DNA from: Antedon mediterranea
Lineage: Eukaryota; Animalia; Echinodermata
Assembly: GCF_964355755.1 (NCBI RefSeq)
Contig: NC_092675.1
Location: 25,702,912 to 25,766,911, forward strand
DNA: 64,000 nt
Direction: 5' to 3'
The number at the start of each line of letters is the position of its first letter. Position 1 is the first letter of the stretch. Below, piece by piece: positions 4,659 through 49,449 of this stretch. The translations under genes and the position numbers were made by a program. Under the pieces are notes generated by a model. That model was not told the origin of the DNA. It searched no databases and saw only the letters and a list, made by a program, of their open reading frames with translations.

Positions 4659-4728
<70 letters not shown>

Positions 4729-4936: not shown

Positions 4937-5751
4937 TTGAATACGTATAATATTAATCATACAGCTGACAGTAATGATTTAAATATACAAATTGGAACCA
5001 GTAAATTAGAACAAGTTGATAGTATAAGGTATCTGGGAGTCGTAATCGATGAAATGTTAACTTGGAAACAAAATACTCAATGTATTAGTAAAAATATTGG
5101 ATATAAAATAACAATGCTAGGTAAAATGGCTAGTAGTTTAAGTAAACCGTTACTAGAAACTCTATATATAAGTACAATTCAGCCTTGTAGTGATTATGCT
5201 ATAACAGTCTGGGGAAATACGACAGAGTTAAACAAAAATATTTTAAAGCGACATCAAAAAAGAGCTGCTCGAATTGTAACTAACAACTTCGATTATATTA
5301 ATGTAAGGGGTGACAACATCATCCAGAACTTATCGTGGCAAACTCTTGAAGAGAAACGAGATTTCTCCCTAGCATGTCTAATGTATAAATGTGTTTACGG
5401 CCTTGCACCAATTAGATTAGTAAATGAAATTGAATTGATTCGCGATATTCACACCCACTTAACACGTGGAGTAGAACATTTGAATGTAACAATACCTAAA
5501 TACACCCTTAGTAAAATGAATTCGTCCTTTAAAGTTGCAGGCGTAAAAATATGGAACAATTTACCAATTAATATTAAATCGGCACCAACAATTACGTCCT
5601 TTAAGGCTAGATACAAATCTCATTTCTTTTCATAAAAAACTGACATGTATTATATTTAATTAAGTTTCTCTTTTGTATATTTTGATTAAGACAGGACCAC
5701 AATGTAAAACAGATACACTGTTATCTGATTGTTTTATCCTGTATAAATATA

Positions 5752-6969: not shown

Positions 6970-7790
6970 TTTTTTTCTCTTTTGTGGCGTGAACCACCAC
7001 CTTTATTCTTTCATATCATAATTAAATACATTACAAATAAATCAGTAATATCTGTCTTCATATGTTCTTTCTTTAATTATATTGTTTTCCGTTAATATTC
7101 TACATTTTTCTTTATCTTTTTCTGCTCAAAAAAAAAATATCAGTAATTTTTGTAAATTTTAGTTTTTCACATATTGTTTCCAATATTATCCTCCTGCTTT
7201 CATGGTTTGTTATTATTCACATTGTACACAGACAATATACATACCATTTATATACATCTTATAGACATTATATACAAAGATATAAAACAACGTTTAATAA
7301 ATTTATTAGGTACCGGTAACTCTTTTAACATTATATGAGCGTTAGTTTGTTCAGATCTTTAACAATAGACTTAAATACAATCCAAGAGTTTTTACACACT
7401 GGTTTGTTTAATTCAGTTAAAATCTTAATGTTATATATTGAGAAGACAGCAATTGAATATAAGTCATTTTTGTATTCACAATCAGACCCTAAAAGAAGTT
7501 CTCTAAAAGAGCTTCTGCCATTGTCAATATTTTTAAAAATGTTATCTATGTTTGTCCATAAAGTTTTATTTCGTATGCATTCAAAAAACATGTGTTTTTC
7601 GTCTTCAATTACCCCACATAAGTCACATACATTATTCATTTTCACATGCCACTTATGAAGCCTTTGATTAGTCGGAACAATTTTGTTCAACAGCTTGTAA
7701 TTTAGTTGTGCATATTTTTTGTTTTTTTCATTTTTCACTTTTTTTATCCAAACGTCACTCCAATTTATTTTCTGAATTTTTAACACTTAA
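6970..7790 (-). mobile_element. L1/Tx1-clade LINE 3' fragment (zf-RVT region)
   Basis: ORF 7331-7786 has YKLLNKIVPTNQRL.KW....VCDLCG..EDEKHMFFEC, the CCHC motif of L1/Tx1 ORF2; A-rich sequence follows on the minus strand. Confidence 0.75.
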
Positions 7791-10032: not shown

Positions 10033-13000
10033 ATGTTTGCGTTTGTATACACCATCGTCTGTTTTATGACATTTATGCATATATCGACATGTAGAGTCAT
10101 GTTAACATGCTTCGATACGTTCGAATTAGGTAAGTAATTTTTTTGTCTAACCTAATTTGTGTGCATATATACATAAATATTCGAGGAAATTGTGTAACTA
10201 AACAAAAAAAAATAAGTAATAATAAAATAAACTAGAGGGTACTCCGAGAGTACAAGGCTCCGCCTACTGTAAAATTCACCTACATAAAATGTCTCCGGAT
10301 ATATTTTTTTACAATTTGTTTATTAGCTCTAAATGTAAATAGGCTAACTGCACACTACAAAGTTGTGGATGAGAGTTTGGTATAATGGTTATGTACACAG
10401 CCTCTCACAGTTGAGATCGCTGGTTCAAGTCCGGACTGGACGAAGGGATGGAATTCCCAGACATCGGCGTTCCTATGGTGATTGTAATATCTGCCATTTT
10501 GGACGATATAGCAATATATCATCTCCTGTATGAGCTCAAGAAATGTTTACAATTGATGATATTTTAGGCTGTGTTTGTGGTGTATACCATCAAATAACCG
10601 TAATTTTAAACCTTAGTTTCTATTTTTAAAACTTTGTTTATAGTAGCATCTAGGCCTAATTTAATAATAATAGTGAATCTAATTATTAGTAGGCCGTATT
10701 GTCATAACCATCCCATCATACATTTCGTTTAATTTAAATGCAATTTTCTAGCAGCAATTATTCCACAAAATAATAAATAAATGAAAACAAAAAGCACCTT
10801 TAAAACGGTTGTCAAAATTGTTTAGTGTCAGAGTTGAAACCAGCTACACAAGTTTCAACAGCGTGGTCCGGTTCAGCCTCAAGGGCTGTGGACGGTGGAG
10901 ATTATTTCGGCAGCGGTTCATGCTCGCAAACGGGTAAGTCATATTGCGTATTGCATATTGTTGATGAATGTATTTTCTGTATGAAATAGGCTTAGAAATA
11001 CTTCTAACGTTGTTTTACCAGCATCCATTAAAATATTAACATATTCATATTTTTCAAACTTTTTAAAAATGAGTAAGCCTATATTTTTAAATTTTATAAT
11101 GAAAACTTTGGCTAAATATTTTTATAGGCCTAATCTTAGATTTTATAATCGTCCTTCTCGCCCCAGGTAAACTCTGCTTTCTTTACAACCCATGCAATAG
11201 TGTAAATACCATGCTTAGAAACGATGAGTCTTCAAATGACAATATTTTTCCATTGTCTACAATTCTTCTATTATCACGTTATTGCATGTAGGTTATTTTC
11301 TTTATTTTTCTTATTTTCGTTTGCCTATCTATTTCTTTTATTAAAGGTAGCCTATATACAACGTGGTGGTATGTTGACCTCGAAACGGAAATATTCATTT
11401 CGAAGATTGTTATATTTAACAGAGAAGATTGTTGTTGTAAGATTATATTAATAGTAATTTTAATGCAATTCTCTCTGGGCGGTTTCTTCCTTTTTAAATG
11501 AAATGAAATTAATTTTTCATCTTTTTCTCATTTTCAGATTGTTCAGCGGCGCTTAGAGGCACGCTATATTAAATTATGTTTAAAAGTAGGCCTATTCTAA
11601 GTATTGCATGTGTTTACTAGTCCACAATTGAGAGTGTTGAAAATCACTTAGACCACTGGGGCTTTCGTGGTATTGTTCAAATTCGATTTGATAGCGAGAC
11701 TCGACGTGGTACAGCAGAAGAGCTGAAATATGATTGTTAAGTCTTGTTTTGCATATTTTCAAATATTGCTAGTGCACCTTGGTATAGTAATATAATTGAG
11801 CTCTTTCTTATTTTTGTTTAAGTCGATTCGTTAGCCGGTCTTCGTGTTCTTGTTGGAAATAACAATGTTTCACCATTTTCCGGTAATTCGCAGTGTGGGC
11901 GGATGCTTTCACAATTTGATTCAATCGCAAGCAACCCTATATTAATAACATGCAGGCCACCTATTTCTGGGCGGTATGTTACTTTAATTAAATCAGGTCT
12001 ACGTGACCATCTTTCCTTATGTGAAGTAAAGGTTTACAAAGGTTTGTACATACTTGGTAATAGAACTTTTTTATTTTCTTTTTCGACATCATGAACTGCT
12101 TCATGGCACACATGTAAACTTAATTTGTCTAAAAAAAGCCATTAAAATCACATCTTTCCACCCAGTCAGAGAATCCTATTAATTTCTTAAAATAATAATA
12201 ATAATAGTCTGTTCTTATATAGCGCATATAAGCAGGCTCTCAATGCGCAAAAATAAAAGCAGGAAATATAATAATTGTGATAGTCTAAATTGCACCATGC
12301 AATTATTATTATTGTCATCAATATTGTTATAATAAAATAAACATGTGTATAAAAAATAATATATTTTCGAGAAAAAAAATATAATAAATATATATATTGT
12401 ATTTCTTTATAATAATCTTAATAAAACGAATGGTCGAACAAATGGATGTAAAGTTGTGTAACCAAAAAAATTGCATTAAATTACCGACTGTCGAACTTAA
12501 CAATATAAATAACATTGGTTTTGCAGATATCGGAAAACCTGAAGTTGTGTGTCCAGATGATATAGAAGTAAATGTTGAAAATAATCAGACTTTACATCAA
12601 GTTAATTGGAATCCTCCCGAAGTTTCTGATAATTTTCAGACGGATCTTTTGGCAACCTGTTTTCCATCATCAGGTTCTTTATTTCCAATCGGATTCACCC
12701 AAGTTACTTGTTCAGCAACTGACGCAACTGGCAACGAAGACTACTGTTCGTTTGTTGTAAATATTGCAGGTTGTAACAACATGGATAAAAAGTTTTTTTT
12801 TCAACCTTAATTACTCTCAGGACCCATGGGGAAGTCACATCCGAGCATTTACCTTCTTCAGATTTAAGTTTATTGTTCTGATTCTAATTGCTCATGTTAA
12901 TTGTTTAAGGGTTATTTTTAAAAGCAATTAAAGTTACATAAAACTCTTTGAGAACGTCAGCAACTCATGTTACAATTAGACACAACTGTTTCACTATTTT

Positions 13001-15945
13001 ACGCATGAAAGAAACTTGTACATCACAATTGCAATATATTTTTGTTCTATAGATAATAAAGAACCAGATCTAATTTGTCCTGAACATATCAAGGTAAACA
13101 ACCATACTGACCAGTACGAAAATCCAGTAACATGGAGTGACCCTACAGTGACCGATAATTTACATAAAAATATATCAGCAACTTGCACACCTGCCTCGGG
13201 GTCTATCTTTGACGTTGGATCAACTATTGTCACTTGTTCTGCAACAGATGGTACTGGAAATTTTGGAAGTTGTTCGTTCGTTGTCCATGTCGTAGGTGTA
13301 GTATTTATATCTGGTAAGCATAACCGTTGTAGGCCTACCTATGCTATCAGTACCTAGTTAAACGATCTGTTAAACTATAACTAGAGTGTTGCTTGTCTTA
13401 AAAAGGAAAAATGATAAACAGTTGGCATAACGTAATAAACATCTAATAAAGTAAAATCGAAACAAGTAAATGTTGCAATAGCTCTTACTGTTTTCCCCTG
13501 AACATTTTTTTTTAAACAAAAAATGTTGAATATGGCATTTTAATGTCGCTTAATGGTTATTCAATTTGACCAAACAGTGGATACACAAATAATAGTCAAT
13601 CGGAAGCCCATTTTGTCAGGCTGTAAAAAAGCTTTTATTTATAAGGCGCCTGTAAATAACATTATATTTATAGATGACGAACGGCCCGTTCTCATTTGCC
13701 CTGAGCACATTACGGTAAATAGTGATGATGAGACTAGAAAACCAGTTACTTGGAGTGACCCAATATTGACACTGGAAGGTATATCAGCAACGTGTACCCC
13801 TCCACCGGGGTCACTCTTTGACGATGGTTCAACCATTGTCACGTGTTCTGCTAGAGACAGCAATGGTGGCGTAATAAAATGTTCATTTGTTGTTAATGTT
13901 AAGGAGAGATTTATCTCAGGTAAGAGTGTTTAATATTGAACTAGCAATACAAAGAACAAAATAAACAGCTGGGCTAGTCAATAGAAATACTTCAAAAGAA
14001 TGACATATTTGCAGAGAACCAACAACTTAAACCTTAGCACCTGTTTGGTCTTTCCTTGCCTTATTGTTTTGTCTTCTTTGTATTTTGTATGGCAGAAAAT
14101 TGAATAAATAAATAAATAAATAAACCATTCTAAATAATTGAAAGTGGAAATATATGGTGTAAATTGTAGTACCAAAGTTTTAGAAGAATTTTAAAGTTTC
14201 CTTGAAATACTATGTTGTCTTTCAAAATCTGGGCTGCCATACGCCTACTAATTCTAAAAGTTTGGCAAATGTAAAACAAAAGGCAAGAGAAAGGTAGACG
14301 ATGTGGCTTTCAATTTGATTGTCCATTTGCAGTAGAATTTATATTTTTCTTGGAAGAATATTTAAGCTGTGGTGCTAATACAGAATTTTGGAACAAGTCA
14401 GAGTTAATATAGAATTGCTACCACTACAACAACTATTACCACAACAGATTACTATTACTATTAATACAGACAAAACTCACAATTACAACATTTTTTTTTC
14501 AGAATGTGTAGAATTGTTTTTGAATAATTAAAATTTGTTTATCAAATGTTCACGTTAAACATACATAATAATTAATATTGTGATCAACCTTTTTTTATTC
14601 AACAGATCATGATTGCTACTAATAACAAGTTGTAATAATAATAGTAGGCTACAGTAGCACATACACTTGATTACTTACAGTGTAAACATATGACAGTTCA
14701 GACCAAAACACAAATTGAATATTTTTAGTAATATTTTAAAATTATAAAATTGACTTTAAATGTACTGAATCAAAACAATTGTGTCAGTATTTGGTGAATC
14801 ACTCAACATAAACTACGTTTTATTTTTTGCATTGGTAGATCTTGTTATCGGTATTGTGTGTCCAAGAGACATTACGTTTAATACGGATCAGCCTGCAGTT
14901 GTATGGAATGATCCAGAGTTGACAGACAACGATGGTACTGACGTACAGCCAACTTGTAATCCACCATCTGGCTCTACGTTTGAAGTTGGATCAACCAGGG
15001 TTACTTGTTACGCAGTTTATCCTATTGTTAACATCAGCTGCTGGTTTAATGTTGAGAGTATAAAACGTTCTACGCCATTTGCAAGTTAGTACAGTCATTT
15101 TGGGGTTATTAAAATCTTGAAAATGTTCGGATAATAGCTATATCATTCACATTGACTTCATGAAAAAAAAAATTAAAAATTAATATTATTATCTCGAGTT
15201 AATAGGGCGCCCTCTGTCGGTGTGAAAGTATATTTTTCTGTTTCTATATTATATCTATTTCTATATAATTAAATCATGTATGCTATTAATATAAGTACTT
15301 AACATAATTATGTGTATATTATAATTGTTTTTAAACTGAAATTTAAAAAAAACCTGCATGATAAACATTAATTGTTAAGTTATTATTTTTGAAGATCATG
15401 CGCAAAGTGATATCGTGTCCAGTGACTCCGATAAGGGGTCCACCGACAACGGGTCTACTGACAGCGGGTATACATGCACAATTCCTTGGTTGATAGCAGG
15501 ACTCATGTTCTTCGTAGTGCTTGTACTTATTGCATCAGTAACAGTTGTGGTTGTCCGGTAATGTTTATATTATTTGTAATATTCCTAAATCTATGAATAT
15601 CATTGTTATATGTTATACAGTAGGAAGCCAAATATAATGTTTATTACGGAATTATGTGGAATTAATGACATACGAAAATATTGAAATTACAAAGGCAAAA
15701 TCACATTTATTAATACATTTTATCTCGAGTGTACATATTTGCTTTACCAAAACAATAGTTGAGTATATACATACAAACAAAGCAAGCACACGTTTTGGTT
15801 TTAATTTAATAGTCCTAGAAATAGAAAAATTGTTTTGTTGTCATGTTTCAGATATCGTAAATCAAAGCAGAGCACACTCGGAATCATTATGAAAACTGAA
15901 GAAGAATCAGTGTCCTGGGAAAAGGGAAATAATATAATATACTAA
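10033..15945 (+). CDS. F-type lectin-HYRx4-TM receptor, copy 2 (~588 aa, non-canonical sugar-binding motif)
   Basis: Exons 10033-10129 (MFAFVYTIVCFMTFMHISTC, signal-like), 10826-10933, 11347-11436 (WWYVDL...NREDCC), 11823-12041, 12527-12769, 13053-13313, 13674-13919, 14839-15084, 15395-15557 (TM WLIAGLMFFVVLVLIASVTVVVVR), 15852-15945. Total 1767 nt, open frame. Confidence 0.88.
10231..10500 (-). mobile_element. Partial Helentron/HINE-like element (same family as 31201-31750) in copy 2 intron 1
   Basis: ACTAGAGGGTACTCCGAGAGTACAA..CTCCGCCTACTGTAAAATTC..CTACATAAAAT shared with 31201; includes a tRNA-like segment. Confidence 0.7.
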
Positions 15946-17956: not shown

Positions 17957-20900
17957 ATGTTTGCGTCAGTGTACACTCTCGTCTGTTTTATGACTTTTCT
18001 GCATATATCGACATCCAGAATCATTCAGTCATGCTACGATACGTTTGAATTAGGTAAGTTATACTCTATTTTTTCAATCATTTAATTATTTTAGCATACC
18101 GGTAACGAGTCTTTGAAACCCCATGTTTAACGAAATAGCACAAGAGTTACACTAGGTAAGTTATTCTGGAATTTATTATGTAATGTAAATATATAATTAC
18201 TTTTATTTCAACGGTCTATTTACTATATATTATGATAGATAAGTTTCAAAGTTAGTATTTGCCATTGGTACCCAGATTTTTCAATTAAATTCAACTTGGT
18301 TTTATTTTCCGCACAAGGAAAACCACAGGCCTATATAATATGGATGATTCATATTTTAAGATAGTTCTATAACGTAATGTATATAATACTGTCGATGATA
18401 ATAATACTAATAAAGGCGAATCATATAATAGAAATAAATAGATCAGAGACGCTTTTACAGCAAATTTGAACCAATTATTATTGTAGATTTTGAAAACGTA
18501 CAATGCGTCGATTTTCTTTCCGTCACAAAAGCCAATATTATACTTTACGGAACACGACGGTTAGTGGGGAGGACGACGAATATCCTGAGTTCGCTAGAGC
18601 GTAAAATCATATACAGTCAGCATAGCCATAGTTTTATTAGGCAAGCTTGGTTCCCACTAGAACGTATCGCAAGGACGTAAACGCAACGCAAGCGTTTTAA
18701 CCAATGACAAGCGAAGTTATAGACAGTTATCAATCACAGGCGAATAAGCCATCGCTTGTGATTGGTCAATTCACTTGCGTTGCGTTACGTCCTTGCGTTG
18801 CGTTACGTCCTTGCGTTGCTAGTGGGAACCACGCTTTACGCACTTTTAGAGCCTTTAGGCGAAGACGTCGACCGACAGTCTCTCCCTCCCCTGTCTCGTG
18901 GCGCAAGCCCTTCTGAATAGCTTGGCTATGGGGATACCGAATAGGCCTATTATAGTCTTCCTAGCTAGGGCCTCGCATTCAACCGCCGCTTTTAAGACAG
19001 CCATTTTAACCTAATAAAAATGTTATTTCATTAAACAATTAAATTAGAAGTTCAAATATTATTTAGAGTTTTGAAAATTTGAATTGAATATAAAAGGTTA
19101 TATATACATTATTTCTAGTTGTTCTCCGTAAACGGGAAAATGGCAACTTTATCGTCCTCAAAAAGTTAAGACGACGGAATTTCACTCTAAGCTCCGCCCA
19201 CTTTGTTCAAGTTCATGCATAAAATTATTCATGGCTGTGGCTTCCCGTCGTGTTTCGTAAAGTCCCTATTATTATGTTTACGTATCTTTTACAAAGTTTA
19301 GAACTTTATATATATTCCTGCTTTACCTCAGTCACATAAGGTTCTGGATTATAAAAATAGGCATACGTCTACATCTCCAAAATCATCAAAACTATGCTCG
19401 TTATAAATATATAACTTTTAAAACCACTCTTCATTTTCTTCAGTATCAGAGTTTAAACAAGCTAGACAAAGTTCAATGAATGCAAATGGTGTTGCTTCAT
19501 ATGCTGTTGACGGTGGATTAAGTGGGCAATACAACAGGCGAACTTGCTCTCATACCAGTAGGTATACGAGCCTGAAGTCTTTTAAATACTATTAAAATGG
19601 TTAATATGTTTATATGCTCTAATTCTTGCCCACCCGCAAGGGGACTGGAGTGTAACTAAATGTGTTTATACTATTAGTAGTGAATGGCAATCAGTTGAAC
19701 GAGGAAGAGAAGAAGAATTATTTTACGAATTGAAAGATTTAATGTTTAACGATTTGCCGAGTTAAATTATCCAATAACGCTGGTAACCAGGATGGAAGGG
19801 GCGGGTGAATGTTCCCCTTTTGTAGAAAAACAACATCCTTTGCAAAAATCCTGGCTCGTTCGTTTCATAAATAACAAGAAATATTTCTTACAAAAAACGC
19901 CGCTTGACATTTTAACATCAATCATTGTTCTTTTGATTAATTTAAAATTAATTATTAAAAAAATGTCATTTAATCGCAAAAATACATACAAATCACAGAT
20001 AGTTCTTTAATTATGAATCACATGCCCATTTTTTCACTAGTTAATTGTATACACAGCATTTGAAAGAAGACATGTGTATTATTTGCCAACAAACATTAAT
20101 CTACTAATTTAGAAATGGAATTTAAAAATGGTCAATCTTGAACTTCAATGTGCTGTAGTCTGTTTGTTGTGACCTCAACCTGTACTGAAGGCATGTAATT
20201 AAAAACCCTCTAGAAACAACGTGACTTCACGGTGGTACAAGTGACAAAATTCTTCCACAATCTGTTGATTCGCGTCAACCACCAATCAAAGGGCGAGAAT
20301 CCATAATCGTTACCGTAAACCGTGGGCCCTCATACTCTCTTTTTCCTGACGTATTTTGGGTCCAGCAGCTGGGACCTATAAATTATAGTCGAGTTTACAA
20401 ATTCGCAAAACTGTCAGCCTTAGATACTAAAGCTACCGCTATGAAACAGCTTATTAATGAATATGTTCTTCTGGACATAGCTGGCTAGAGCCGTGGCGCA
20501 AAAATATTCTGCAAACAGGGATTTTTTATTTTTTTATTTAAAGCTCAACAGAATCGACCGTGGTGGTATGTTGATCTCGGAACGGAAACAGTAATTTCGA
20601 AGATTGTTATATATAACAGAGAAGATTGTTGTGGTAAGAGTACATTAATCATTGATAAAAAAAATATTGGGGCGTTTTTTTAGGGCATATCAATTTTTAC
20701 CTCTGTTGCATGCGTGTATTGCTATCGCTGTAGACGGTTAAGCAAGTCACTATCCGTGTTTATTATATCTTTTTAAAATGTTTGGGTCCAACCCATGATA
20801 ACATACAATGACAGCATTCAGTAGTCTAATGGTAATGTCAATCAATATTTCTCAGTTTAGTACATATTTAAAATTTATCATCGTTTATTTATCGTGCATT

Positions 20901-23900
20901 GTGGTAACATTCAATAACTTTATTTTTTAAGCGGAGAGGTTGGCAGGTATGGAAGTTCGTGTCGGCAATAACAATGTTTCGCCTTTTTCGGGTAATGCAC
21001 AATGTGGATCGACTATTTCACGAATTACTGCAATCGCAATAAACCCGATAGAAATATCATGCAACCCACCTATTTCTGGGCGGTATGTTACTGTATCTAC
21101 ACCGATTTTAGGAATTATCACATTATGTGAAGTAAAGGTTTTCAAAGGTGTGTATAAACATCAATATACGATAAACATTTTTAAGGTCTATTATGTGTTA
21201 TTATCTATTATTGGCAGAACGCTTGCAAAGTTACTACGTATATTTGTTTTATGTAAGTTTTTACACAATACACAGCAAAAAGTTACCGTCGACATATTGC
21301 TATCAAAATCTCATGTATCTTCAATAGGCGCCCATATCAAATAAAACGCCCTCTGTCGTTTTTATGCATTTGCCGAGTATTTTTCGCTCAGAGTTTTTAC
21401 AATAAACAAATTTTATTTTTAAAACAATATACCGACATTTTATAAGTCAAAGACATACTACATTAGGTTTTATAGATATTATAGATATATGTTATAGATG
21501 ACAACTTTATTTACCAAATGTTTAATAATATAATCAACTAAGCACTAACATTGGTTTTGTAGATATTGGAAAACCTGAAGTTGTGTGTCCAGATGATATA
21601 GAAGTAAATGTTGATAATAACCAGACTTTGCACCAAGTTACTTGGAATCCTCCTGAAGTTTCTGATAATTTTCATACGGATCTTTCGGCAACCTGTTCTC
21701 CGTTATCAGGTTCTTTATTTCCCATTGGTTTCACCCAAGTTACTTGTTCAGCAACTGACGCAACTGGAAACGAAAGAAACTGTTCTTTTGTTGTAACTAT
21801 TGCAGGTCAGGAAACTAATGATACTATGAAAATTACAAAGTTTTATTTTAAATCTTTATGTTTTGATATAGGAGAATTAATTTTAAAAATTAAGTCACTA
21901 ATTGTATGGTTAAATGTATTATTGAAAGACAACTATTAGACCTCCTTCAAACCCCCCCACCCCAAGATATCTAATTTAAATATTACATTGTTCGTTAAGC
22001 TCTGTCTACACTATCAATGACATCATCAAGTCCATATGCATAATATATAGGCACATTACATAAAATGTGATACTGTAGACAGAACTTTATATAACGAATA
22101 AACATGCCTATTTCTTAAATTATAATTTATATAATCATAATTGAAACATTTTGAACATATTGAACCAATATACTCTTGAACTAAGGCTCTGTCTACACTA
22201 TAACACTTTATGTGCCCATATATGGCCATGGTGATGTGAGATCACTGCCATATTTGAGCATATCACTACCAATTGGGCAAATTACACTTTTTTGTCAACT
22301 AGTTTGATAGTGTAGACAGAGCTCAAGATCAAAATACTTATTATGTTATTTTTTAAATGTTTTTTAGATAATAAGGAACCAGACCTCGTGTGTCCTGAAC
22401 CCATTATTGTTAACAACAGCACCGACCAATACGAAGACCCAGTTACCTGGAGTGACCCAACCGTAACTGATAATTTGCATAATGATATTTCCGCAACTTG
22501 TTCACCTGAATCGGGATCAATATTTGGTGTTGGTTCAACTATTGTCACGTGTTCTGCAACGGATGATACTGGAAATGTGGGAAGTTGTTCATTCGTTGTC
22601 CATGTCACGGGTCAAAAATTTATTTCTGGTAAGCATAGGCCTAACTTCTACTATTTTTCTTTATTATCTAAAGAACAGACAAATATACATATACATAATA
22701 TACAGTATAATTGCAATTGTCTCAAGAGGGTAAACTTTTGTCTTTAAAATTAGTATTGCTATATCTCTTTTAGCTATTCATCGTGTCCGTGGGTGGTTAT
22801 GGGTGCAGAATAAATCTCTTTCTAATTCATCAAAATATATTTATGACAATTCTATTCTATAAAAGTTTTCATGTGCTGCCCTACGAAGAACAGAGCACCT
22901 AACAATAATAGTATTTTAATTAAAATGAAGAAGTTTTAAGTTGACGTTTTCGCTCCTCTCAAATCGACAGGCACCGCGTTCCAGATCCCCGGAGCGGTGA
23001 CAGAAGAGACATTGTCACCAGCTTTCCGATTAGATCGTGGAACGAAAAGTCGAGTGGGACAATTGGAGGAGCTGATCAAAATTGGAATGCAGTATTTTAT
23101 TGTGTTCCTTAATGCATTAGTTTTAATTTGCATAATGAATATAGCCATACAGAGTTATTTTAACGAACACATTTACGTTTGAATATGCAACAACATTTTC
23201 AAAATGGTGCTTTTACTGTTTAATATTTTATAATAAAACACTTAAAACTTAAATGTACAGGTGACCAACGACCTTTCCTCACTTGTCCTGGGCATATTAC
23301 CGTGAATAGTGATCAATCTAGGAACCCAGTTACTTGGACTGACCCCATATTGACGCCGGGAGGTATATCAGCAACGTGTACACCTGCGTCGGAGTCAGTC
23401 TTTGACGATGGTTCAACCATTGTTACATGTTCTGCTAGAGACAGCAATGGTGACGTAATAAGATGTTCATTTGTAGTTTATGTTAAAGAGATATTAAAAT
23501 CAGGTAAGATAATATTATATTAGTATCACTTGACAACATTGAATTTTAGTGTAGTCATTAATTCATGCAGTTAAGACAGAAAACGGACACCCTTAAAACA
23601 TTCTAAATAAAAAGGGAAACCACATTATGGAACCCGTAGTGTCCAAAGTCGGATAACGGTCTCTAGAAGTGTGCTGTATGTCATGTTTCTTAACGTCTGT
23701 GCTTACAATTACAAGGATAGTTTCTAGAAGAAGTTTATGATATAATGTTTACAATTTATATGTAGGTGCTTTTTGGAACAATTTGAAAGTGTTGGCAAAT
23801 TATATTTTATTGTAGTACCGGTATGAAATTGGATGTTCTGAAAAATTTGAGTCTACGTAACAGTATTGCCAATTTGAATTGTATGTGTCAATTAGAGTAG

Positions 23901-25274
23901 ATTCCATTTACATTTTTTGTGGAGAAATATTAATTAAAATTAACTATTATTTTGAAACACTAAATCTAGAATTTAGGGACAAGTAAGCCCTGAGAGTAAC
24001 TTTGCTTGCTGATACTACCACAATTGCTTCCAAACACAAATTCAACATTTCTTTATGTTCAAATTGTTTACAAATGTTGATACTGGATTGAAATTGTATA
24101 CTTTATAGGCCTACATTGTAGGAAATTCACTTAAAATCGATTTGTTTTAATATATTATGGGTAGATCTCACTATCGGTATCGGTTGTCCAAGTGACATTA
24201 CGTTTAATACGGATCAGCCTGTAGTTGTATGGAATAAACCCAAGTTGACAGACAACGTTGGTACTGACGTACAGCCAACTTGTAATCCATCATCTGGCTC
24301 TACGTTTGAAGTTGGATCAACCAGGGTTACTTGTTACGCAGTTTATCCTATTGTTAACATCAGCTGCTGGTTTAATGTTGGGAGTATAGAAAGTTCTACG
24401 CCATTTACAGGTCAGTCTACAACCTTTTAATGAAACACTAGTAATAATTGGTGATGATACTCTCGTCCGTTGAAGTTTGACCGCCTCAGACATAATTGTG
24501 TGGTTCACCCATTGTTCCTATTTAAAAACTGGAATTCAATCACGATATCAATCTTTGTTTAAATGATTATTTTTTCAGATCGAAGTGACAGTGGGTCCAC
24601 CAACAGTAGGTCCACCAACAACGCGTCCACCGACAGCGAGTCCACCGATGCACAGTCTTGGCTAATTGGAGGACTCGTTATCATCATAACGCTTGCTCTT
24701 ATAGCAGCGGTAACAGTTTTGGTTGTCAGGTAATGTTCATAAATTTTGTTTATTTTTAAGATAGCCAGACCAAATGAAAGATCTTTCTGCTCAAACTATG
24801 TTACAAACATAGATTCCATTTGATATTCATTTCTGGCTGACTGATGAAAGATAACGGGTTCCGTTTTCGATCGTAAAAATCATGGAAAAGTGATATTTAT
24901 TGTTCGGCCGATACAATGATTTTTACAACTTAAAATAAAAAAGAAAACAACTTTTTATTTCCTTTTTAATTTTCGCTAAAAAAAGAACAAAAATGTCATT
25001 CTTAAATAACCATCGCTTTGCCGAAACATTATTCCAATTTTTAGAAACATACCGTGCATATAGGTCGCGTACAGGAATCAAGCGAAGAGAATGCATACTT
25101 TAGCTAATTTTAATTCAGCTAATTTTAATTTAACATAATAAATTCAATAGATTCAATAATTCAGGTAAAATTAACTTTGTTTATTGTTTCAGATATCGTA
25201 AATCTAAGCAGAGTACACTTGGAATCAATATGGAAACAGAAAAAGACTCCGTGACCTTGGGAATTGTTAATTAA
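17957..25274 (+). CDS. F-type lectin-HYRx4-TM receptor, copy 3 (~580 aa, canonical HX26RXDX4R motif)
   Basis: Exons 17957-18053, 19444-19557 (AVDGG...CSHT), 20544-20633 (PWWYVDLG...NREDCC), 20932-21147 (AERL...LCEVKVF), 21563-21805, 22368-22628, 23261-23503, 24165-24410, 24579-24729 (TM), 25193-25274. Total 1743 nt, open frame. Confidence 0.9.
18540..19267. mobile_element. Non-autonomous DNA transposon with a nested MITE (18643-18837) in copy 3 intron 1
   Basis: Inverted ends ACTTTACGGAACACGACGG / CCGTCGTGTTTCGTAAAGT. Confidence 0.65.
21998..22324. mobile_element. Two adjacent short MITEs
   Basis: GCTCTGTCTACACTAT...TAGTGTAGACAGAGC inverted repeats at ~21999-22085 and ~22186-22323. Confidence 0.65.
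22860..23120 (-). mobile_element. L2/CR1 LINE 3'-end remnant
   Basis: RLFVPRSNRKAGD...SVTAPGIWNAVPVDLR is a typical L2/CR1 ORF2 C-terminus. Confidence 0.6.
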
Positions 25275-26071: not shown

Positions 26072-29000
26072 ATGTTTGCTCCAGTATATATCATTGTCTC
26101 TTCTATGACATTTCTGCACTTTTCAAAATCTCAAAAAAATTCATGCTACAATACTTTCGAATTAGGTAAGTAACAACCCTTCAATTTATTGTAATTTATA
26201 AATATTTAGTTGATTAGTTGAGTTAATATGTGTATCTATATAAAATGCGCATTCTGAACTGTCAGTTACTATTTACCAATTCAAAAAACGTTTGTCAAAA
26301 TTATTTAGTTTCGGAGTTCAAAGAAGCTAAACAAATTTCAACACATTCGTCCAATGCAGTTGCGGCATGGGCTGTTGATAGTGGAACAGATGGAATATTT
26401 GCCAAACATACGTGCTCTCACACTCGTAAGTGACATTACATAATTATGTAAGTTTGGGAGTCTTTTCACTTCTATATGTTATTTATTGACAACATAATAA
26501 TTAACATGGTTCACATTATGAGAAGCGACACCCAGGAGTGGACGCAGAGAGTCATTATCAATGTATTCCTTCTCTGTGTTTCGATTTAGAGTGAATTACC
26601 TACTGTTCGGACCGATGATATCGGCTAACCAACTGTAGAATGAAGTCAACTAACCATAACAGGCCCTAAATTCAATTGATAACAGAATGCAATCCACTAC
26701 TTTAATCGGTCGTAAACAGTAAAAGCATAAACTTCTTCAAAAACACCTTTTAAAAAACATATAGTATTTATAAGGTAAGATGCCCCTTATGAGTTTTACT
26801 AAATACCCTTTTTACTTTATTGTGGTAAGAATTTCATGTTTTCATAATTTTGTTTTTTAAAAGATCTCGGACCGAATAATCCATGGTGGTATGTTAACCT
26901 CGGAACGGAAACAGTTATTTCAAAGATTATCATATATAACAGAATAGACTGTTGTGGTAAGACTATTAATATGATATTCAACGGTTCAATAGGCTTATTA
27001 GTATAACATTGTTTAGTATTGTTAATATAATATTATAATAAATAAATGTCTGATTTAGTATCTAAGCTTGGTATGATACTGCTAGATCATTACCATTAAA
27101 TTAAAACAATCTGTCTTTATGTGCTTAATAGCGCATTTACATTAAAAAAAACATTTTACATTTTTTTCACACTTAAGCAACTAGATTAGCAGGTGCGGTT
27201 GTTCGTATCGGCAATAGCAATGCTTCACCATTTTCAGAAAATTCACCATGTGGCGAGAGAATTTTAAGAACAGATGCATTGACCAAAAACCCAATAGAAA
27301 TGTCTTGCAACCCACCAGTTTCTGGGCAATATGTTACCATATCGCTACCAGGAAGTCAACCACTTACTCTGTGTGAAGTAAAGGTATACAAAGGTACTGT
27401 GTACAGATTATATCAACAAATGCACTTACATGCTTAGATCTGTGACTTATATTGTCATTACCTACGGCGTTATTATTTACTCATATGTTATTCACATTTA
27501 TTTCGAAAATTCCAAAGATAACAAAGATATTATGAACTAGTTCAGGAATCGAATTTTAAAGTAGAAGACTATGACATTCCCTCAACGGAAAACAAATTCT
27601 AGCAAAAGGAACTTCCAATTTTAGATAGTTTAACATTTTATGCATGACATGCTTACATTTACAACAAATTATTTTCAAATGTCCTTAAAATAAAATAAGA
27701 AAATTTAAGGGAAGACAATTAATTATTTTTCAGATATTGGAAATCCTGAAGTAGTGTGCCCAGATGATATAACAGTAAGTGCTGGAATTAAACAATCTAT
27801 AAATCCAGTTACTTGGAATCCTCCTGAAGTTTCTGATAATTTTCATACGGATCTTTCGGCAACCTGTTCTCCGTCATCAGGTTCTTTATTTCCAGTCGGA
27901 TTCACCAAAGTTACTTGTTCAGCAAGTGACGCAACTGGAAACGAAGGAAACTGTTCGTTTGTTGTAAATATTGCAGGTCAGAAAACATATCTTTCTTTAA
28001 CGAATAAGCCGAATCGCAGAAATTAAACTAGTATGGACTATTAAAAATGCAAGATATTGTTGTTCTTTAGATGATAAGGAACCAGACCTTGTGTGCCCTA
28101 AACATATCACGGTTAAAAACAATACCGATCAGTACCAAGATCCAGTAACCTGGAATGACATCACAGCATCCGACTTGGTTGGGGGAAGCGGGGAAGTTTG
28201 GCTTCATGGTAAGGGCATCTGTATGCATTGTGATACAATTTTCTCAAACATCCATTTACTTTAAAAATCAGAATTTGCCACTAGCACCAGAAGTGGCTGA
28301 ACTTGTCTGCTGGGTAAAAATCAGACGACAGATTACCACGCAAGCTTGACAAAAAAAACTTGGTAATTTGTTATCGGGCCTAAATTAAACTTCCACAGTA
28401 GGCCTACTCCCTAACTGACCTCAGTTTGTTTCTCCTACGTTAGATATATCATCAACTTGTACACCTGAATCAGGATCAATATTTGATGTTGGTTCAACTA
28501 TTGTCACGTGTTCTGCAAGAGATGCTACTGGAAATGTAGGAAGTTGTTCGTTTGTTGTCCATGTCATAGGTCAGACATTTGAATCCAGTAAGAATAAGTT
28601 TTATATTCTAAAACAGGTATCATCAACAAATTAAAACAAAATACAGGAGGCTACTAAAATGTAATGATAAAAAACGTCGACATTCTTTAAAACACCATCT
28701 CCATTTGTTGTGAAATTGACTATATATATTATTTAAATAATATATTGTCAGAAATATCGTGCAAATAATTGTGAAGTTTTAATTGCAAGAGCCAATCAGA
28801 AAGCCTAAAATGTTGGGTTTTTAGACACGTATATTTGTTTCTGGTAAGGATACGTAAGCAAGATAAGCACTCAACCTAAATCTTTGAATGAAAACGACAA
28901 AGAATTAAAAAAAAATTTTTTATTATGCTATATAATATATCATTAATGTCCCATACAAATACTTTACCTTAGATGACGTACGATCTGTTCTTACTTGTCC

Positions 29001-30690
29001 TGAGCATATTAGTGTGGACAGTGATCAATCAAGGACAATAACTTGGAGTGACCTTACATTGACATCTATGTCAGCAACGTGTACACCACCGTCGGGGTCA
29101 GTCTTTGACGATGGTTCAACGATTGTCACGTGTTCGGCTAATGACGTTAACGGTGACATAATAAAATGTTCATTTGTTGTTCATCTTAAAGCGAGATCTA
29201 GTTCAGGTAAGTGTATGTCACTTGGAGGCCCCTCACAAGGTAGGCCTACAGTTTTTGTCGCGAGTAGCGTCTGCATAAGCTTAGCAACAGGAGGTTGAAA
29301 AATATACAACAATAATATAAACAAGGCCATATACATAGCTGCAGTCGAGTGCGCAAATTTGAGTTAGTAATCACTTAAACAGTAAACATGTTTGATATCT
29401 TTTTAAAAGTCTTTAGAGCTAGATTTAAAAAAAAATATCATTACATAATTTTATTCCAAGATATATTAGTGTAAACATAGACTGTCAATGACAGAATAAG
29501 CACATTTACATGATATGGCATGTCTGTGTGAAACGACGTCCAATAGGAACATTGCCATTCAAAATAATAATCAAACAAATAACAAACACAAGAAAGATCC
29601 AAGTATTCAAAACTTTAGTTTGGGTATGGGACATGCACATTGGAAATAAATCATACTACATCGTAACCAAACTTGTGCTGGAAAATACACTATAAGAGCA
29701 GAACTGAAAGACTAATTAGAATTTACAGCCTAACTACTTATTTTGGTTTGATGGCACTGTGGAATAAAAAATTATCATATAATTTAGAATTAAATTAAAA
29801 ATTATGCTAAACCGGACTTTTAAATGTACTGAATAATGGTTATTATGTTTTAATTATTATTGGAAGATTTTAGTATTGGTATTGTATGTCCACGTGACAT
29901 TACGTTTAATACGGAACAGCCTGTAGTTGTATGGAATAATCCAGAGTTGACAGACAACGTTGGTACTGACGTACAGCCAACTTGTAATCCACCATCTGGC
30001 TCTACGTTTTTAGTTGGATCAACCAGAGTTACTTGTTACGCAGTTTATTCTATTGTTAACATCAGCTGCTGGTTTAATGTTGGGAGTCTGATAAATGCTA
30101 CACAGTTACCGGGTTAGTAGCCTACACCTGATATCAACTATATAACACACAATAAATAGTGCAATGTTCTGCTCGCGTGCATTTTAAATATTCTTTTATT
30201 CTGTATGCTTTTAAAATCTTTCTTTAAATCAAATTTGTGATTTTCTTTATAGTTCCAAACCTATAAAAATCGGAAAAATCAATAACATTCTTAAATCTTT
30301 ATTTTCAAAGGGTATTCTCATAGTGACAACGAGTCTAAAGACACACATCACTATTTTGTAATAGGAATAGGCTGTGTAATGGTTGTTCTTATTGCATCAG
30401 TCATAATTGTGGTTATCAGGTAATGTTCATATTATTATTTACGATTACGAACCAACTTAGAGTTTCAAAAACTGTTCGATAAGATCAATTTCTATATATT
30501 TGACTCATACTTACCTAGCATTCTCAAGAAAATGTCAAGACATTATGTTTATTATTTCCTTTTGAAAACAAACCTAACTTTACTGAAATTAATTTGTTTC
30601 AGATATTACAATGCAAAGCGTAAGCAGATTACATTTGAAATCAATATGAAAGCACAAGAAGAAACAGTGACTTGGGACATAATAAAATAA
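26072..30690 (+). CDS. F-type lectin-HYRx4-TM receptor, copy 4 (~573 aa if the extra HYR2 intron is spliced)
   Basis: Exons 26072-26165, 26309-26425, 26864-26956, 27178-27393, 27734-27976, 28071-28208 plus 28444-28587 (split HYR2), 28973-29206, 29867-30112, 30311-30419 (TM), 30603-30690 (YYNAKRKQITFEINMKAQEETVTWDIIK*). Total 1722 nt, open frame. Confidence 0.8.
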
Positions 30691-31200
30691 TCTTAATTAT
30701 TCTACACTATCTTAAAAAATTCCATTAGTTAGTAATAATGTAATGCGTATGCTATATTGTAAAACTAAGAATTATATAATGGTAAACAAGGAATGCAAAT
30801 GACAAATCAGAAAACGTTCAGGGGGAACCAATTCTGATCATCATTATTATATTCGTAATGTTGAATTATTTAGGCTAGCACCTAGCCTATCGACGTAAAA
30901 TGTTATAATATTTTATTGATATATTGATGCACCAACATGTAATACAAGTGACATTCACACATTTGGATTTAGAGGGTTATCCCGAATACATAATTGTTAA
31001 CGTAATTCATTTTTATAATACCACAAAAATTACGTATAATCATAAATAGAAGGCATTTTATTACATTCACAACATTATTTAAGCTTAGGCATGCTTCGAG
31101 AACCATTTCTCATCATCAGTACAATAATAAGAAGTTATATACCCTCTTAACCACTGTATGTACATGTGACAATTAATTAGCATGATAAAAAAAGGAAAAA

Positions 31201-31750
31201 ACTAGAGGGTACTCCGAGAGTACAAACCTCCGCCTACTGTAAAATTCCCCTACATAAAATTCCCAAGAAAAATGTTTTTTTTTTTTTACATTTTTGTTAT
31301 TAATTCTAAGTGTAAATAGGTTAACTGCACACTACAAAGTTGTGGATGAGAGTGTGGTGTAATGGTTATGTATCCAGCCTCTTACAGTTGAGATTGCTGG
31401 TTGAAGTCCCACTGAGGTTTTGTTTTTTAAATTTTTTTTTGTGGACCTTGATCTTTGACCCTGACCCTTCAAAATTTAACCACAATTATATGATGAGTCA
31501 TTGTGGCTATGTTTCGTGGGAATCGGATAAAAACTGTGGTCTGTAGGCAGTAAAATAGTTTTTTGTTAGTTGTGACCTACACCTATAACCCTTTCCCTTC
31601 AAATTCGAACTCGTCCGAGCTTTTTGGCCATAGATCATTATTGTGGGCAAATTTGGTGAGAAGAGGATAAAAACTGTGGCCTCCAGGCTGTTCACAGACA
31701 CACACACAAACATACAGGGGTGAAAACATAACCTCCTTGGCGGAGGTAAT
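31201..31750 (-). mobile_element. Helentron-associated non-autonomous element (HINE/DINE-like)
   Basis: Minus strand begins ATTACCTCCGCCAAGGAGGTTATGTTTTCACCC and ends GGCGGAGGTTTGTACTCTCGGAGTACCCTCTAGT (subterminal inverted repeat, hairpin, CTAGT); internal TGACCTTTGA-like motifs and (CA)n. Confidence 0.8.
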
Positions 31751-32848: not shown

Positions 32849-35800
32849 ATGTTTTCTAGAATATATATTCCTGTATCTTTATTGACGCTTGTTGAATCTT
32901 ATAATCCATTTGTCGCCGAACGTTATGGTAAGTTCTGCACTCCATTATTTAAGTATCACATAATAAAATAAATAAATCATGAGAAAGTAGCAGACTTGGT
33001 GTGATGTTTTCTAAAAAAACATAAACTGTCGTGTGTTTGACAGTTTCTCCATCATGTTGACCAAAAAAATCATCAATAAATTACTCCGCCGGCCATACTG
33101 TAGACATTAGAGATATGCTGAATGTATAACAAGCTACAAAAGTTTGTGTTTTGAACAGATCTGGTTTCACGGGGAAAAACTGCAAATCAGAGTTCAACGC
33201 ATGGACCTAGTGTGGCAAACCAGCAGTTGATGGCCGTAAGGATGGAAACTATTGGGCTCATTCTTGTACCCATACAGGTAAGTAGGCCTAATCATGTCTT
33301 AAACGTAAGGTAACAGTTTAGGGACTACGATAAGTATGCAATGTACTTTCAACATCGTTTCCTTAATATGTAAAGTAAGACATTTGTAAACAATATCCCA
33401 GTATAATCTCTTATATTATTACGACCTATTATGCATTCGCAAAAGACGGGTTAATACAAACAGAACATAAGTTTTCCATCTTTTAAGCTCGGTTTCCATT
33501 AGCTAGGACATAACACAGGGAAGTAAGGGCAACGCCAGTGATATTACCAATCGCAAGCTGTCATTGGTCATTTCACTTGCACTGCGTCTACGTGGGGACC
33601 AAGCTTTCAAACATTATTTTACGTACTAGTGTAAATACTAATTATTTAAAAGTTTCTTTCACATTCGTTTACTTTATCTGCAATCAATTTAAGCAGCACA
33701 CGAGACAAACCCTTGGTGGTATGTTGATCTCGGATCATCAAGACTTATTGCAAAGATCATCATATATAACAGAGTTGATTGTTGCGGTAAGAGTTTTATC
33801 AGTACATTATTTTGCTAATTCCTGTATTTATTTAAACAGGCAAAAAGATAATTATAATACTATGGAATCGTAAAAATCAATTGGAAACGTTTATGAAAAA
33901 AAAACACCTTTTACAGCGTTGCAACTAGTAGTAGGCCTAAGGCAAAACTAAAACTTCAACTCTTAACTAGTTGTTCTATTTTTTGTTTTAAGGAGAACGG
34001 TTAGATGGAGCTATTTTGGGTGTAGGAAACGACAAGGTATCGCCGTTTAGAGGAAATTCACATTGCGGGACATTAGTTATAGCCGATAATAGCCGGCGCA
34101 TACAACGACTGTGCTTTTTAGAAGGCCAGTACATTAGTGTTTATATACCAAAAAAGGAGGCTCAGTCTTTTTCTATTTGTGAACTAGAAGCATACGTAGG
34201 TATGTACAGTATAATCTGAAATAATTAAATTCACAGAAAAATAATAATTAATTAATATTTTGTCACCGACATGGTTAATTTATGATTTGATTTAATTTCT
34301 GGTATTCTTCATTCGATGAAATTTGAAAAATTATTGGTTGCTTTACCGCTTTCCTGTTTATTGTAATAATAAAGGTCTTTGTGAATAATACACCAATAAC
34401 GACATAGAAACATCATAAATATATAATATCTCTTTATATAATGTATTTAGAAATCCTTCCAAACAAAAAAAAAGCTAATTATTTTTTATTATGTTACAGA
34501 TACACAGAAACCTTTTGTTATTTGTCCAGATGACATTGAGATAAATTCTGATGCTAATCAGAATTTAAATCCTATTACATGGCGAGATGCGGTGGCATTT
34601 GACAACACTGGTCATAAAAAGAATAGGCTTAAGTTACGCTTCCATGGTCATAATAGACTAGTAGCCACTTGCTCAAAGCCATCTGGTTCATTATTTGAAA
34701 TTGGGTTCACCAAGATTTCTTGTTCTGCAACTGACCGAAGTGGAAATGAAGGCAATTGTTCGTTTGTTGTTCATGTCAAGGGTTAGACATTGCGTTTTTG
34801 TTTCATTGTTTAGGCCTAATATCTTAGGTTACTGGGAGTATTGTAGGTGTCACTACCAGATTCTTAGCATGTATTCCGCAGTAGGCCTATCATGGGAAAA
34901 TTACGGCATCTCACGTGGTGCTTGTATTATGTAAGGTTATTACGGTCTATGATAACTACACTAGGTAAAACAACATCATATTAATATAGGGTATATATCT
35001 ATTGTTTTCAAAGTCAAACTGAAGTAATCGTTATTTCCAATGAAACTTACTTAGCAAAATAATCATTTCTTTCATTTCTAAAACCAACTAAATTAGACAT
35101 CAAAGAGCACGCTTTCACTTGTCCCGAACACATTACTGTGAAAAATGACGTTGACCAGTCTGAAGATCCTGTAACTTGGAATAAACCCACAGCGATCAAC
35201 AAAGAACATAAACCTATACCAATCACATGTACGCATGCATCTGGATCAATCTTTGACGTTGGTTCAACTATTGTCACGTGTTCCTCAACAAGAGGTACTG
35301 ACAAAGAAAGAAGTTGCTCATTTGTTGTACATGTCATAGGTCAGATATTTCTTTCAGGTAAGTCTCGTTGTTTTATTTACTCATAAGTGGTGTCCATTTA
35401 TACGGCTGTAACTTGTGAAAAGTTAAATCACATTTCTTGTTCTTACAATACCTTTTTTTTTGTAGATGTCCCTATCGTGATGTGTCCTCAAAGCATCTCA
35501 TTGTTCTCTGATAAATCTTTGCAACCAGTGACATGGAACAAGCCAAAGGTGGTGGACGATTTTGATAGCGATTTAGTGGCAACCTGCATACCTTTCTCTG
35601 GTGATTTCTTTGCACGTGGATCAACACAGGTTACATGTTCAGTGACCAATTCATTCGGAAACAATGGCAACTGTTCTTTTGTTGTTGATGTCACGAGTCT
35701 CAAGTCACCACAAGGTGAGAATTATTCTTGTCACTGCCTTCAATTATCGTATAAGAATTCCCTCTAAATTATATTACACGTGTAGGACTACAGTATAACA

Positions 35801-36449
35801 ATATTGGAGAGTATATTATGTAGCGTGACTTTTTTTACAATTTAAATTTGTTAAAGCTTTATCTCAAGATGACGATGCGTCTGACATCGCACATGGGTAC
35901 TTGGCAGCAGCTGTTACCGTTCTTAGTGTGATGGTGTTAGTATTGGTGCTAATACTTACCATCATAGCCAGGTTTGAGTAGACATACATAAAATAAATGA
36001 GTATTTGTATCGGCGGTAACATAAAAATGAAAACAATCCAAACCGATAGCCTATGCTAAAACACGTTTTTAACACCATGTCTCTTGCCGTGGCCCTTTGT
36101 GGGAAGTTGCAAATTAACTTGAAAATATCGTAAAAAAAAGATCAACAACGTACCCATATAATATAAATCGAATACGCCATATAATACACATATGATCTTT
36201 TGAATGGAATCACTGAATGGAGATAGCATAAATGCTGACGATGAAGAAAAAGAATGTTTGCCTTGCAAATTAAAATGAGTGGATAAAAGAAAGACAAAAA
36301 GAAAGAAAGAAAAATAGAGCACCATCAAATTAAAAAAAACCAAAATAACAAACAAAATCTTGTTGTTTTGCAGATACCATACACGTAAGAATAAAGCTGG
36401 AGGAATTAAAACGGAGGATAACAACGCTTCTTGGATTGTGTTGGAGTAA
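32849..36449 (+). pseudogene. F-type lectin-HYRx3-TM receptor, copy 5 (single 1-nt frameshift: young pseudogene, null allele or assembly error)
   Basis: Exons 32849-32927, 33159-33277 (119 nt against 120 in copy 7; AAC C-A GCA GTT GAT near 33221), 33694-33786, 33993-34199, 34500-34781, 35097-35357, 35466-35714, 35857-35971 (TM), 36374-36449. Other exons are open. Confidence 0.7.
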
Positions 36450-41860: not shown

Positions 41861-42116
41861 TTGAGCGAGCATAGTCAATGTTAATGAGTTCAACTACAAT
41901 TATGCCTAAGCCTATGTCAGGGAAGAGTAAGATTAACTCTTCCCTGATTATGTAAACAAGATATCATGCTAACTTGTAAATAATAATAAGGTAAAAAGCC
42001 AATAGAAAAAGGTCAATGTAATAAGACACAATTCATTGTTATTTGGCACCGGAATAAAATCTCCAAACTGTGCCAGTACCAAGTATGTAATGACGTTGTT
42101 TAATAGATATACCGGT

Positions 42117-49416: not shown

Positions 49417-49449
<33 letters not shown>

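Follow-up and report, generated by a model that had tools for sequence, protein, structure and literature searches.

Repeat and exon searches of a 64,000-nucleotide stretch of the genome of the crinoid Antedon mediterranea (contig NC_092675.1, positions 25,702,912 to 25,766,911, forward strand; hereafter the window, to which all coordinates refer) identified seven tandem copies of one gene, all on the same (+) strand and spanning 658-48325. With exon edges placed at GT-AG sites and then translated, the copies share one exon order: a signal exon, three lectin exons, a series of HYR exons, a transmembrane (TM) exon and a tail exon, with all introns upstream of the TM exon in phase 1. Four HYR domains are encoded by copies 1-4 and three by copies 5-7. 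Copies 2, 3, 4 and 7 have intact reading frames from start to stop, and their gene models equal RefSeq A. mediterranea proteins letter for letter; copy 1 runs off the edge of the window and lies within a fifth RefSeq protein, and copies 5 and 6 are frameshifted. Pfam recognized F5/8-type and HYR domains in all six proteins scanned, the HYR domain (PF02494) in 3-4 stretches each and at 123-160 bits against a gathering cut-off of 21.7. Further relatives of the same architecture occur on the same contig outside the window and in Anneissia japonica. We regard it as reasonably likely that these genes form an old tandem crinoid family in which two of the stalk exons, HYR4 and HYR1, are kept similar by gene conversion between neighbours and the loops predicted to line the lectin pocket become different, so that the copies likely differ in glycan preference.

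The four-HYR copies provide the main comparisons. Copy 1 (658-4886, its 5' end beyond the window and its translation within XP_071954524, P0003) comprises lectin exon 3 (658-873), HYR1 (1216-1458), HYR2 (1661-1921), HYR3 (2567-2809), HYR4 (3095-3343), TM (3512-3623) and tail (4805-4886). Copy 2 (10033-15945; 588 aa, identical to XP_071954519, P0002) has lectin exons at 10826-10933, 11347-11436 and 11823-12041, HYR1 at 12527-12769 and HYR4 at 14839-15084. In copy 3 (17957-25274; 580 aa, identical to XP_071954520, P0124) the signal exon (17957-18053) and three lectin exons (described below) are followed by HYR1 (21563-21805), HYR2 (22368-22628), HYR3 (23261-23503), HYR4 (24165-24410), TM (24579-24729) and tail (25193-25274). 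Copy 4 (26072-30690) has lectin exons at 26309-26425, 26864-26956 and 27178-27393 and HYR4 at 29867-30112; if its HYR2 is spliced in two parts it encodes 573 aa, identical to XP_071954523 (P0007).

An earlier note on this DNA had called the HYR4 exons of copies 1-4 almost identical and the stalk near-invariant close to the membrane. The four HYR4 starts it gave (3095, 14839, 24165 and 29867) are exact, but the likeness was overstated: pairs of HYR4 exons are 87.2-95.1% identical as DNA over the exon, 93.6-96.1% in its core and 79-88% as protein. The emphasis on the membrane also has to be given up, since HYR1, which lies next to the lectin, is 87.5-90.8% identical among the same copies, while HYR2 (76-83%) and HYR3 (78-84%), lying between the two, are not similarly alike. 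Divergence is greatest in the TM and tail exons (29-51% and 39-65% protein identity). Similarity along the gene is patchy, and a membrane-proximal gradient was rejected on two grounds, HYR1 being as alike as HYR4 and the parts nearest the membrane the least alike.

Silent divergence follows the same patches. Using a codon model written for this analysis (GY94 with F3x4 frequencies; not PAML), we estimated tree-wide synonymous divergence (dS) at 0.25 for HYR4 and 0.43 for HYR1, as compared with 1.25 for HYR2, 1.04 for HYR3 and 1.47 for lectin exon 3; equal dS over the four HYR exons was rejected on all three topologies (p about 1e-9). The codon models covered the cluster except copy 6, with copy 5 entering only the six-copy runs and the cross-subfamily HYR2 comparison, and relatives beyond the window were compared as proteins. 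Direct counts of silent polymorphic codons agree: 6/56 in HYR4, 10/50 in HYR1, 27/52 in HYR2, 19/38 in HYR3 and 12/28 in lectin exon 3 (chi-square p = 3e-6), and set against HYR2 and HYR3 together, in which 46 of 90 silent-capable codons vary, both HYR4 (p = 4e-7) and HYR1 (p = 3e-4) are depleted. The ratio of nonsynonymous divergence (dN) to dS runs the other way, at 0.76 for HYR4, 0.47 for HYR1, 0.22 for HYR2, 0.35 for HYR3 and 0.41 for lectin exon 3. This bears on the suggestion, made in the earlier note, that purifying selection on the protein or gene conversion maintains the stalk. The lowest tree dN among the exons compared is indeed that of HYR4 (0.19), as purifying selection on a constant membrane-proximal stalk would have it, but HYR4 also has the least diverged silent sites and the highest dN/dS of the HYR exons (pairwise 0.59-1.53), and selection on protein cannot lower silent change; with the TM and tail exons, nearer still to the membrane, diverging most, we consider this explanation very improbable, and of the two suggestions it is conversion that fits.

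Recent duplication of whole genes is no better an explanation of the HYR4 similarity. Across 42 paralogous intron pairs the best local alignment score was 84, from short patches only, and the introns are otherwise unalignable; the copies are therefore not recent, and we ruled this candidate out. Similarity falls to background within 10-20 nt outside each exon, and within the exons there are exact matches of 90 nt between the HYR4 exons of copies 2 and 3 (14965 versus 24291) and of 68 nt between the HYR1 exons of copies 3 and 4 (21636 versus 27807). A tract of HYR2, picked after viewing the data, is also close across subfamilies, with 5 of 31 silent positions differing between copies 1 and 7 against 46 of 102 elsewhere (p = 0.003). 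Taken as they stand, these sequence comparisons make it quite probable that conversion causes the low dS of HYR4 and HYR1. Conversion would overwrite exons that are still similar enough to pair, with tracts confined to exons as the introns have lost their shared homology; loops that have once diverged and changed in length would resist further conversion, so that the contrast between head and stalk would be self-reinforcing.

Several observations weigh against conversion. Sawyer-type pairwise run tests detected nothing in any of six pairs, whether on silent codons or on all sites, a test with little power if all four copies have been homogenized. Low-dS exons show no rise in third-position GC content (GC3; 0.31 in HYR4, 0.19 in HYR1), unlike the converted regions of fugu protocadherins, and the low GC3 of HYR1 may itself depress its dS. 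Constraint at the DNA or RNA level, or a low local mutation rate, likewise predicts low dS with dN/dS near 1, would be at ease with the negative pairwise tests, and finds some encouragement in the HYR1 exon of copy 4, which has no differences in 105 nt between two related organisms, A and B (see below). It would, however, require that two separate whole exons be so constrained in each of four genes; the composition of HYR4 is ordinary, its GC3 and CpG density matching those of HYR2 and HYR3; and both the cross-subfamily HYR2 tract and the chimeric paralogs described next would be left unexplained. We judge it improbable as an alternative to conversion.

Exchange between subfamilies is suggested by two relatives outside the window, XP_071953758 and XP_071953750 (proteins P0012 and P0126), in which a signal peptide and lectin of the copy 1-4 type sit on a stalk, TM segment and tail of the copy 7 type. 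Trees were built from 11 family proteins, or from 10 where the stalk is concerned because P0001 has none, and groups were named after seeing the sequences. In these trees both relatives join copy 7 by their stalks (support 99/97), sharing with it 82% identity in HYR1 and 83-85% in the tail region, while their lectin exon 3 is 55-73% identical to copies 1-4 and 40-44% to copy 7. Approximately unbiased (AU) tests rejected, for the head sequences, the clade with copy 7 that the stalks support (p = 2e-5) and, for the stalk sequences, the arrangement favoured by the heads (p = 0.009), with p = 0.07 for TM plus tail. We regard these two proteins as candidate domain-swap chimeras; counting against them, both are known from RefSeq predictions only. 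A third relative, XP_071954522, is 85% identical to copy 1 in lectin exon 3 and 61% in exon 1, as if lectin exons had also been exchanged or were evolving very unevenly.

The lectin head belongs to the F-type lectins. The nearest solved structures to copy 7 (42320-48325; 481 aa, intact, with three HYR domains, and identical to XP_071954526, P0016) are 3CQO (E = 3e-39) and the eel agglutinin AAA, 1K12 (E = 2e-22), and the structure that AlphaFold predicts for copy 3 has the F-type jelly-roll fold, aligning with 1K12 at E = 1e-7 and a TM score of 0.64 by target. The mean pLDDT (AlphaFold's confidence score) of that model is 65.9 and residues 37-65 fall below 50, leaving the loops unmodelled; sites were accordingly placed by alignment to 1K12 and not on the model. 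Mapped in this way through copy 7, whose lectin exons lie at 43867-43986, 44585-44677 and 45020-45226, the first lectin exon of copy 3 (19444-19557) carries the equivalents of the complementarity-determining-region (CDR) loops CDR1 and CDR2, the Ca motif and the triad His; the second (20544-20633) carries the loop after that His, the WWYVDL strand, RxD and the vicinal Cys-Cys; and the third (20932-21147) carries the second triad Arg, the inner disulfide and a variable loop before the LCEV motif. Together these exons span the interval (19444-21147) under which the earlier note had entered its variable lectin loops, and the four first-exon peptides and five pre-LCEV loops that it quoted are all present in the copies it named.

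The fucose triad, His...R-x-D-x4-(R/K), is present in copies 1, 3, 4 and 7 with a His-to-Arg spacing of 26-27 residues; His52 and Arg79 of AAA give a spacing of 26, though a review writes X24 (PMC5712786). In copy 2 the triad is broken, with Gln in place of His and Ser in place of the second Arg, so that its predicted product is an F-type fold with a non-canonical pocket; the triad His is absent from only two of the 11 family proteins, copy 2 and XP_071953750. Where the cation motif is h2DGx (x = N, D or S), copies 1, 2, 3 and 7 have AVDG but with Gly as x, and copy 4 has AVDSG. Of the six cysteines equivalent to Cys50-Cys146, Cys82-Cys83 and Cys108-Cys124, five are invariant in 11/11 rows and the last is missing only from the truncated P0001. 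Copy 7 belongs to a different subfamily from copies 1-4, without HYR4, and its first lectin exon is 82% identical to that of the Anneissia japonica protein XP_033107303, of which HYR1 is only 57% identical. This points to pocket loops conserved across crinoid genera, which makes copy 7 a poor example of variability, as the earlier note had used it, and implies that these loops matter at least there.

Pocket loops evolve 2-5 times faster than the lectin core, with dN/dS near 1. They were defined by alignment to AAA, with the limits of the CDR3 and CDR5 equivalents being those we presume for the family. The limits of CDR1 and CDR2 are published (PMC5712786). With dS shared over the domain, dN/dS is far from uniform, at 0.89-1.69 in loops and 0.25-0.31 in the core (p <= 5e-13), an excess that upholds part of the earlier proposal of diversifying selection on the head; the stronger part, dN/dS above 1, is not robust. 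When loops are given their own dS, which is 1.5-1.9 times that of the core, the ratios become 0.56-0.96 and 0.28-0.35 (p 0.02-0.11); dN/dS exceeds 1 at p < 0.05 in only one of eight fits, and none of the pairwise values for whole lectin exons reaches 1. Site models, run 11 times over three copy sets, three gap treatments and two alignments, were more favourable: M8a/M8 gave p < 0.05 in 9 of the 11 lectin runs (range 0.001-0.11) and M7/M8 in 7 of 11 (0.0009-0.19), with no signal in either of two HYR control runs. No more than two sites per run reach a posterior of 0.95. Sites that recur between runs lie two residues past the first inner-disulfide Cys, in the pre-LCEV loop (two sites), at a position aligning with Tyr46 of the eel methyl pocket, and in the loop after the triad His. 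Neither of two sets of 22 simulated null replicates, one on a single tree and the other with a converted core, reached the observed statistic of 5.39.

Three further results tell against selection on the pocket. M1a/M2a was below 0.05 in only 3 of 11 lectin runs (range 0.013-0.37); the top site, just past the first inner-disulfide Cys, lies outside the loops defined as CDRs; and masking the copy 3 codon that reads Ser, not Leu, in four runs lowered the statistic from 5.39 to 4.18, a value exceeded by 2 of the 22 converted-core nulls. It may be that the stalk is converted and the loops merely drift, as surface loops free of fold constraint and without positive selection. In the four-, five- and six-copy sets loop dN/dS is 0.89-0.93 with shared dS and 0.56-0.64 with own dS, a ratio of 1 is not rejected in seven of eight fits, the signal weakens when gap columns are removed (M8a/M8 p = 0.09-0.11 for four copies), and indels in CDRs are normal among F-type lectins (PMC5712786). 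Against drift stand the frequency of significant M8a/M8 runs, the failure of every null replicate to attain the unmasked value, and the conservation of copy 7 loops between genera. Drift is in our view a real, if lesser, possibility; we lean slightly towards a few pocket sites having been under positive selection after duplication, and positive selection is suggested but falls short of proof, the outcome depending on alignment and test.

Comparing copy 4 of organism A with that of its relative, organism B, is also of limited help to that interpretation. The lectin exons differ by at least nine bases, seven non-silent, among them a three-base change in CDR1, and two silent; these counts rest on 40 of 85 differences together with per-contig totals, and that for lectin exon 2 is a minimum. 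Differences affect 2.3% of lectin non-silent sites, about 2.6% of non-coding DNA and 0.8% of the covered HYR parts, with no contrast significant; in particular, the lectin excess of non-silent change (7/304 versus 2/239, p = 0.31) is not. In the contig comparison that also took in copies 2 and 3, intronic repeats dominated, and its counts rest on 40 of 594 differences. Contigs of organism B are fragmented, and the pieces listed do not reach across the HYR4 cores.

Each gene would yield a predicted single-pass surface protein in which an HYR rod would serve as a spacer lifting a single lectin head. As in AAA, a fucose-like sugar would sit in the His-Arg-Arg triad, with recognition of the sub-terminal sugars left to the loops around it. 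The tail is short and basic, roughly 25-30 residues, and contains no recognized tyrosine motif and no pattern like the immunoreceptor tyrosine-based activation or inhibition motifs (ITAM, ITIM), as we presume these to be defined; capture or adhesion of glycans is therefore more likely than signalling alone. The likeliest ligands, at about even odds, are glycans of microbes or particles met at the surface of an epithelium or of coelomocytes, a choice made mainly because a sea-cucumber F-type lectin binds lipopolysaccharide and bacteria (PMC12221842). The same evolution could instead serve gamete recognition or larval or tissue adhesion, as the F-lectin repeats of oyster bindin, some without the triad, diversify at the pocket (PMC5712786), hyalin and sea-star footprint proteins contain HYR domains (PMC9382459), and the predicted stalk resembles cadherin and immunoglobulin (Ig)-like rods. 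Bindin, however, is stored in the acrosome and its repeats are polymorphic, and here the paralogs are separate and of membrane type; the copy 4 orthologs of organisms A and B differ little, and a copy 7 pocket kept across genera is a poor fit to species-specific gamete recognition. We find such a role somewhat unlikely. Duplication, loop divergence, occasional head swaps and pseudogenization (two of seven copies) could together produce a birth-and-death repertoire. It is tempting to speculate further that these genes are a modular repertoire of crinoid glycan receptors, with selected loops, exon-limited conversion of stalks and head swaps at the phase-1 intron between lectin and HYR1; as a complete account this is unlikely, and if it is true, crinoids, the sister group of all other echinoderms, would possess a recognition system of F-type lectins diversified in the germline.

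The triad, vicinal Cys and both disulfide pairs of AAA (1K12), striped-bass MsaFBP32 (3CQO) and the Japanese eel isoforms are shared by most copies, but those lectins are soluble oligomers, whereas the Antedon proteins place one domain on 3-4 HYR domains and a TM helix and are encoded in a tandem cluster. Variation among the eel isoforms is concentrated in CDR1 and CDR2 (PMC5712786). Pacific oyster bindin has in common with the cluster a variation clustered at the pocket, units that have lost the triad, and recombination that yields variants (PMC5712786); it is, however, polymorphic within species, built of tandem repeats and under strong site selection, where the Antedon diversity lies between paralogs and the selection is marginal. 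The evolutionary pattern of divergent heads on converted bodies is already known from two systems. Clustered protocadherins of fugu and zebrafish are also adhesion-type genes in tandem, their distal domains divergent and their proximal ones regionally homogenized, with low silent divergence, but there identity exceeds 99% over one continuous 3' block with raised GC3 (PMC1852091); in the Antedon cluster it is 87-95%, patchy in that it covers HYR1 and HYR4 and leaves out HYR2/3, TM and tail, limited to exons and without raised GC3. The mammalian Toll-like receptors TLR1 and TLR6 are likewise tandem recognition receptors in which the ligand-facing part diverges and another part is converted, as shown in nine species, with conversion spanning the TM and TIR domains (PMC2077338); the Antedon case differs in coming from a single species and in having its TM and tail as the most divergent parts.

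Neither the lectin-HYR-TM architecture nor a crinoid F-lectin/HYR receptor was found in the literature searched, including two reviews searched by term, of which PMC5712786 lacks the term HYR and PMC12221842 the terms hyalin and crinoid; a census of F-type domain architectures may list it. The cluster would add to the F-type lectin family a membrane-anchored lectin-HYR architecture from two crinoid genera, and its products are candidate recognition proteins of the crinoid surface. Its four intact heads differ in their pockets and can be tested directly; one lacks the fucose triad, and another is kept between genera. The stalk carries a caution as well: the look of a variable head on a constant stalk can arise by conversion, and the constant exons here bear the weakest signature of protein constraint.

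The remaining copies are decayed. Copy 5 (32849-36449, +), of the three-HYR subfamily, has a single frameshift, in lectin exon 1, and is likely a pseudogene. Copy 6 (37151-41865, +) is a pseudogene with a stop in the signal exon and several frameshifts; exon searches of the window recovered only the 3' part of its lectin exon 3 and no TM exon. In copy 4, HYR2 contains a predicted phase-1 GT-AG intron (28209-28443, +), which the RefSeq model splices out and which is not present in the other six copies. An insertion at 28160-28443 has apparently been turned into this new intron, with a GTAAG donor, a CTAAC branch-like site, a pyrimidine tract and AG, leaving the loop seven residues longer; the insert is also found in DNA of organism B, with an additional 21-nt insertion.

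Two contig runs, X5 and X9, were treated as RNA solely because their contigs skip introns. Contigs begin or end at exon edges, as spliced transcripts would, for copy 2 in X5, for copy 3 in both and for copy 4, where joints at predicted splice sites were seen for five introns in X9 and for two of these also in X5, among those listed. None of the joints listed for these runs crosses the copy 4 HYR2 intron, and the 5' half of that HYR2 has no cover in either, which is not evidence of skipping. One X9 contig joins 27845-27934 in HYR1 of copy 4 to 28257-28344 in the HYR2 insert and runs on into sequence like that near 31995; its ends are non-canonical and the joint may be an assembly artefact. A RefSeq isoform of copy 3 skips lectin exons 2 and 3 (19444-21805; proteins P0005, P0001 and P0004 are concerned). 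Short lectin-only RefSeq products match copy 1 at 97% identity over lectin exons 1-2, and are possibly secreted forms or a broken near-duplicate upstream. At 21109 and 21629 in copy 3, in the pre-LCEV loop and HYR1, the base in the window differs from the contigs of both organisms (Leu versus Ser), a private allele or an assembly error.

High-copy short interspersed repeats, with depth hundreds of times background, occupy introns at 18640-18850, 19900-20500, 21980-22330 and approximately 29230-29330, and repeats at 10226-10432 and 31196-31409 are 85% alike. Three decayed retrotransposon fragments lie in or after copy 1: those at 3896-4379 (+) and 4937-5632 (+), which have no Pfam match, we take to be of the type without long terminal repeats (non-LTR), and that at 7334-7786 (-), also non-LTR, matches zf-RVT. 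Downstream of the cluster are a caveolin gene (49041-50810, -; PF01146) and, at about 58000-64000 (-), a REXO1-like RNA exonuclease gene with an EloA-BP1 match and motifs that we take to be of the DEDDh type. A more distant A. mediterranea protein from another contig, P0011, has a CUB-EGF-F-lectin-HYRn-TM architecture, suggestive of a wider crinoid family of lectin/HYR receptors.

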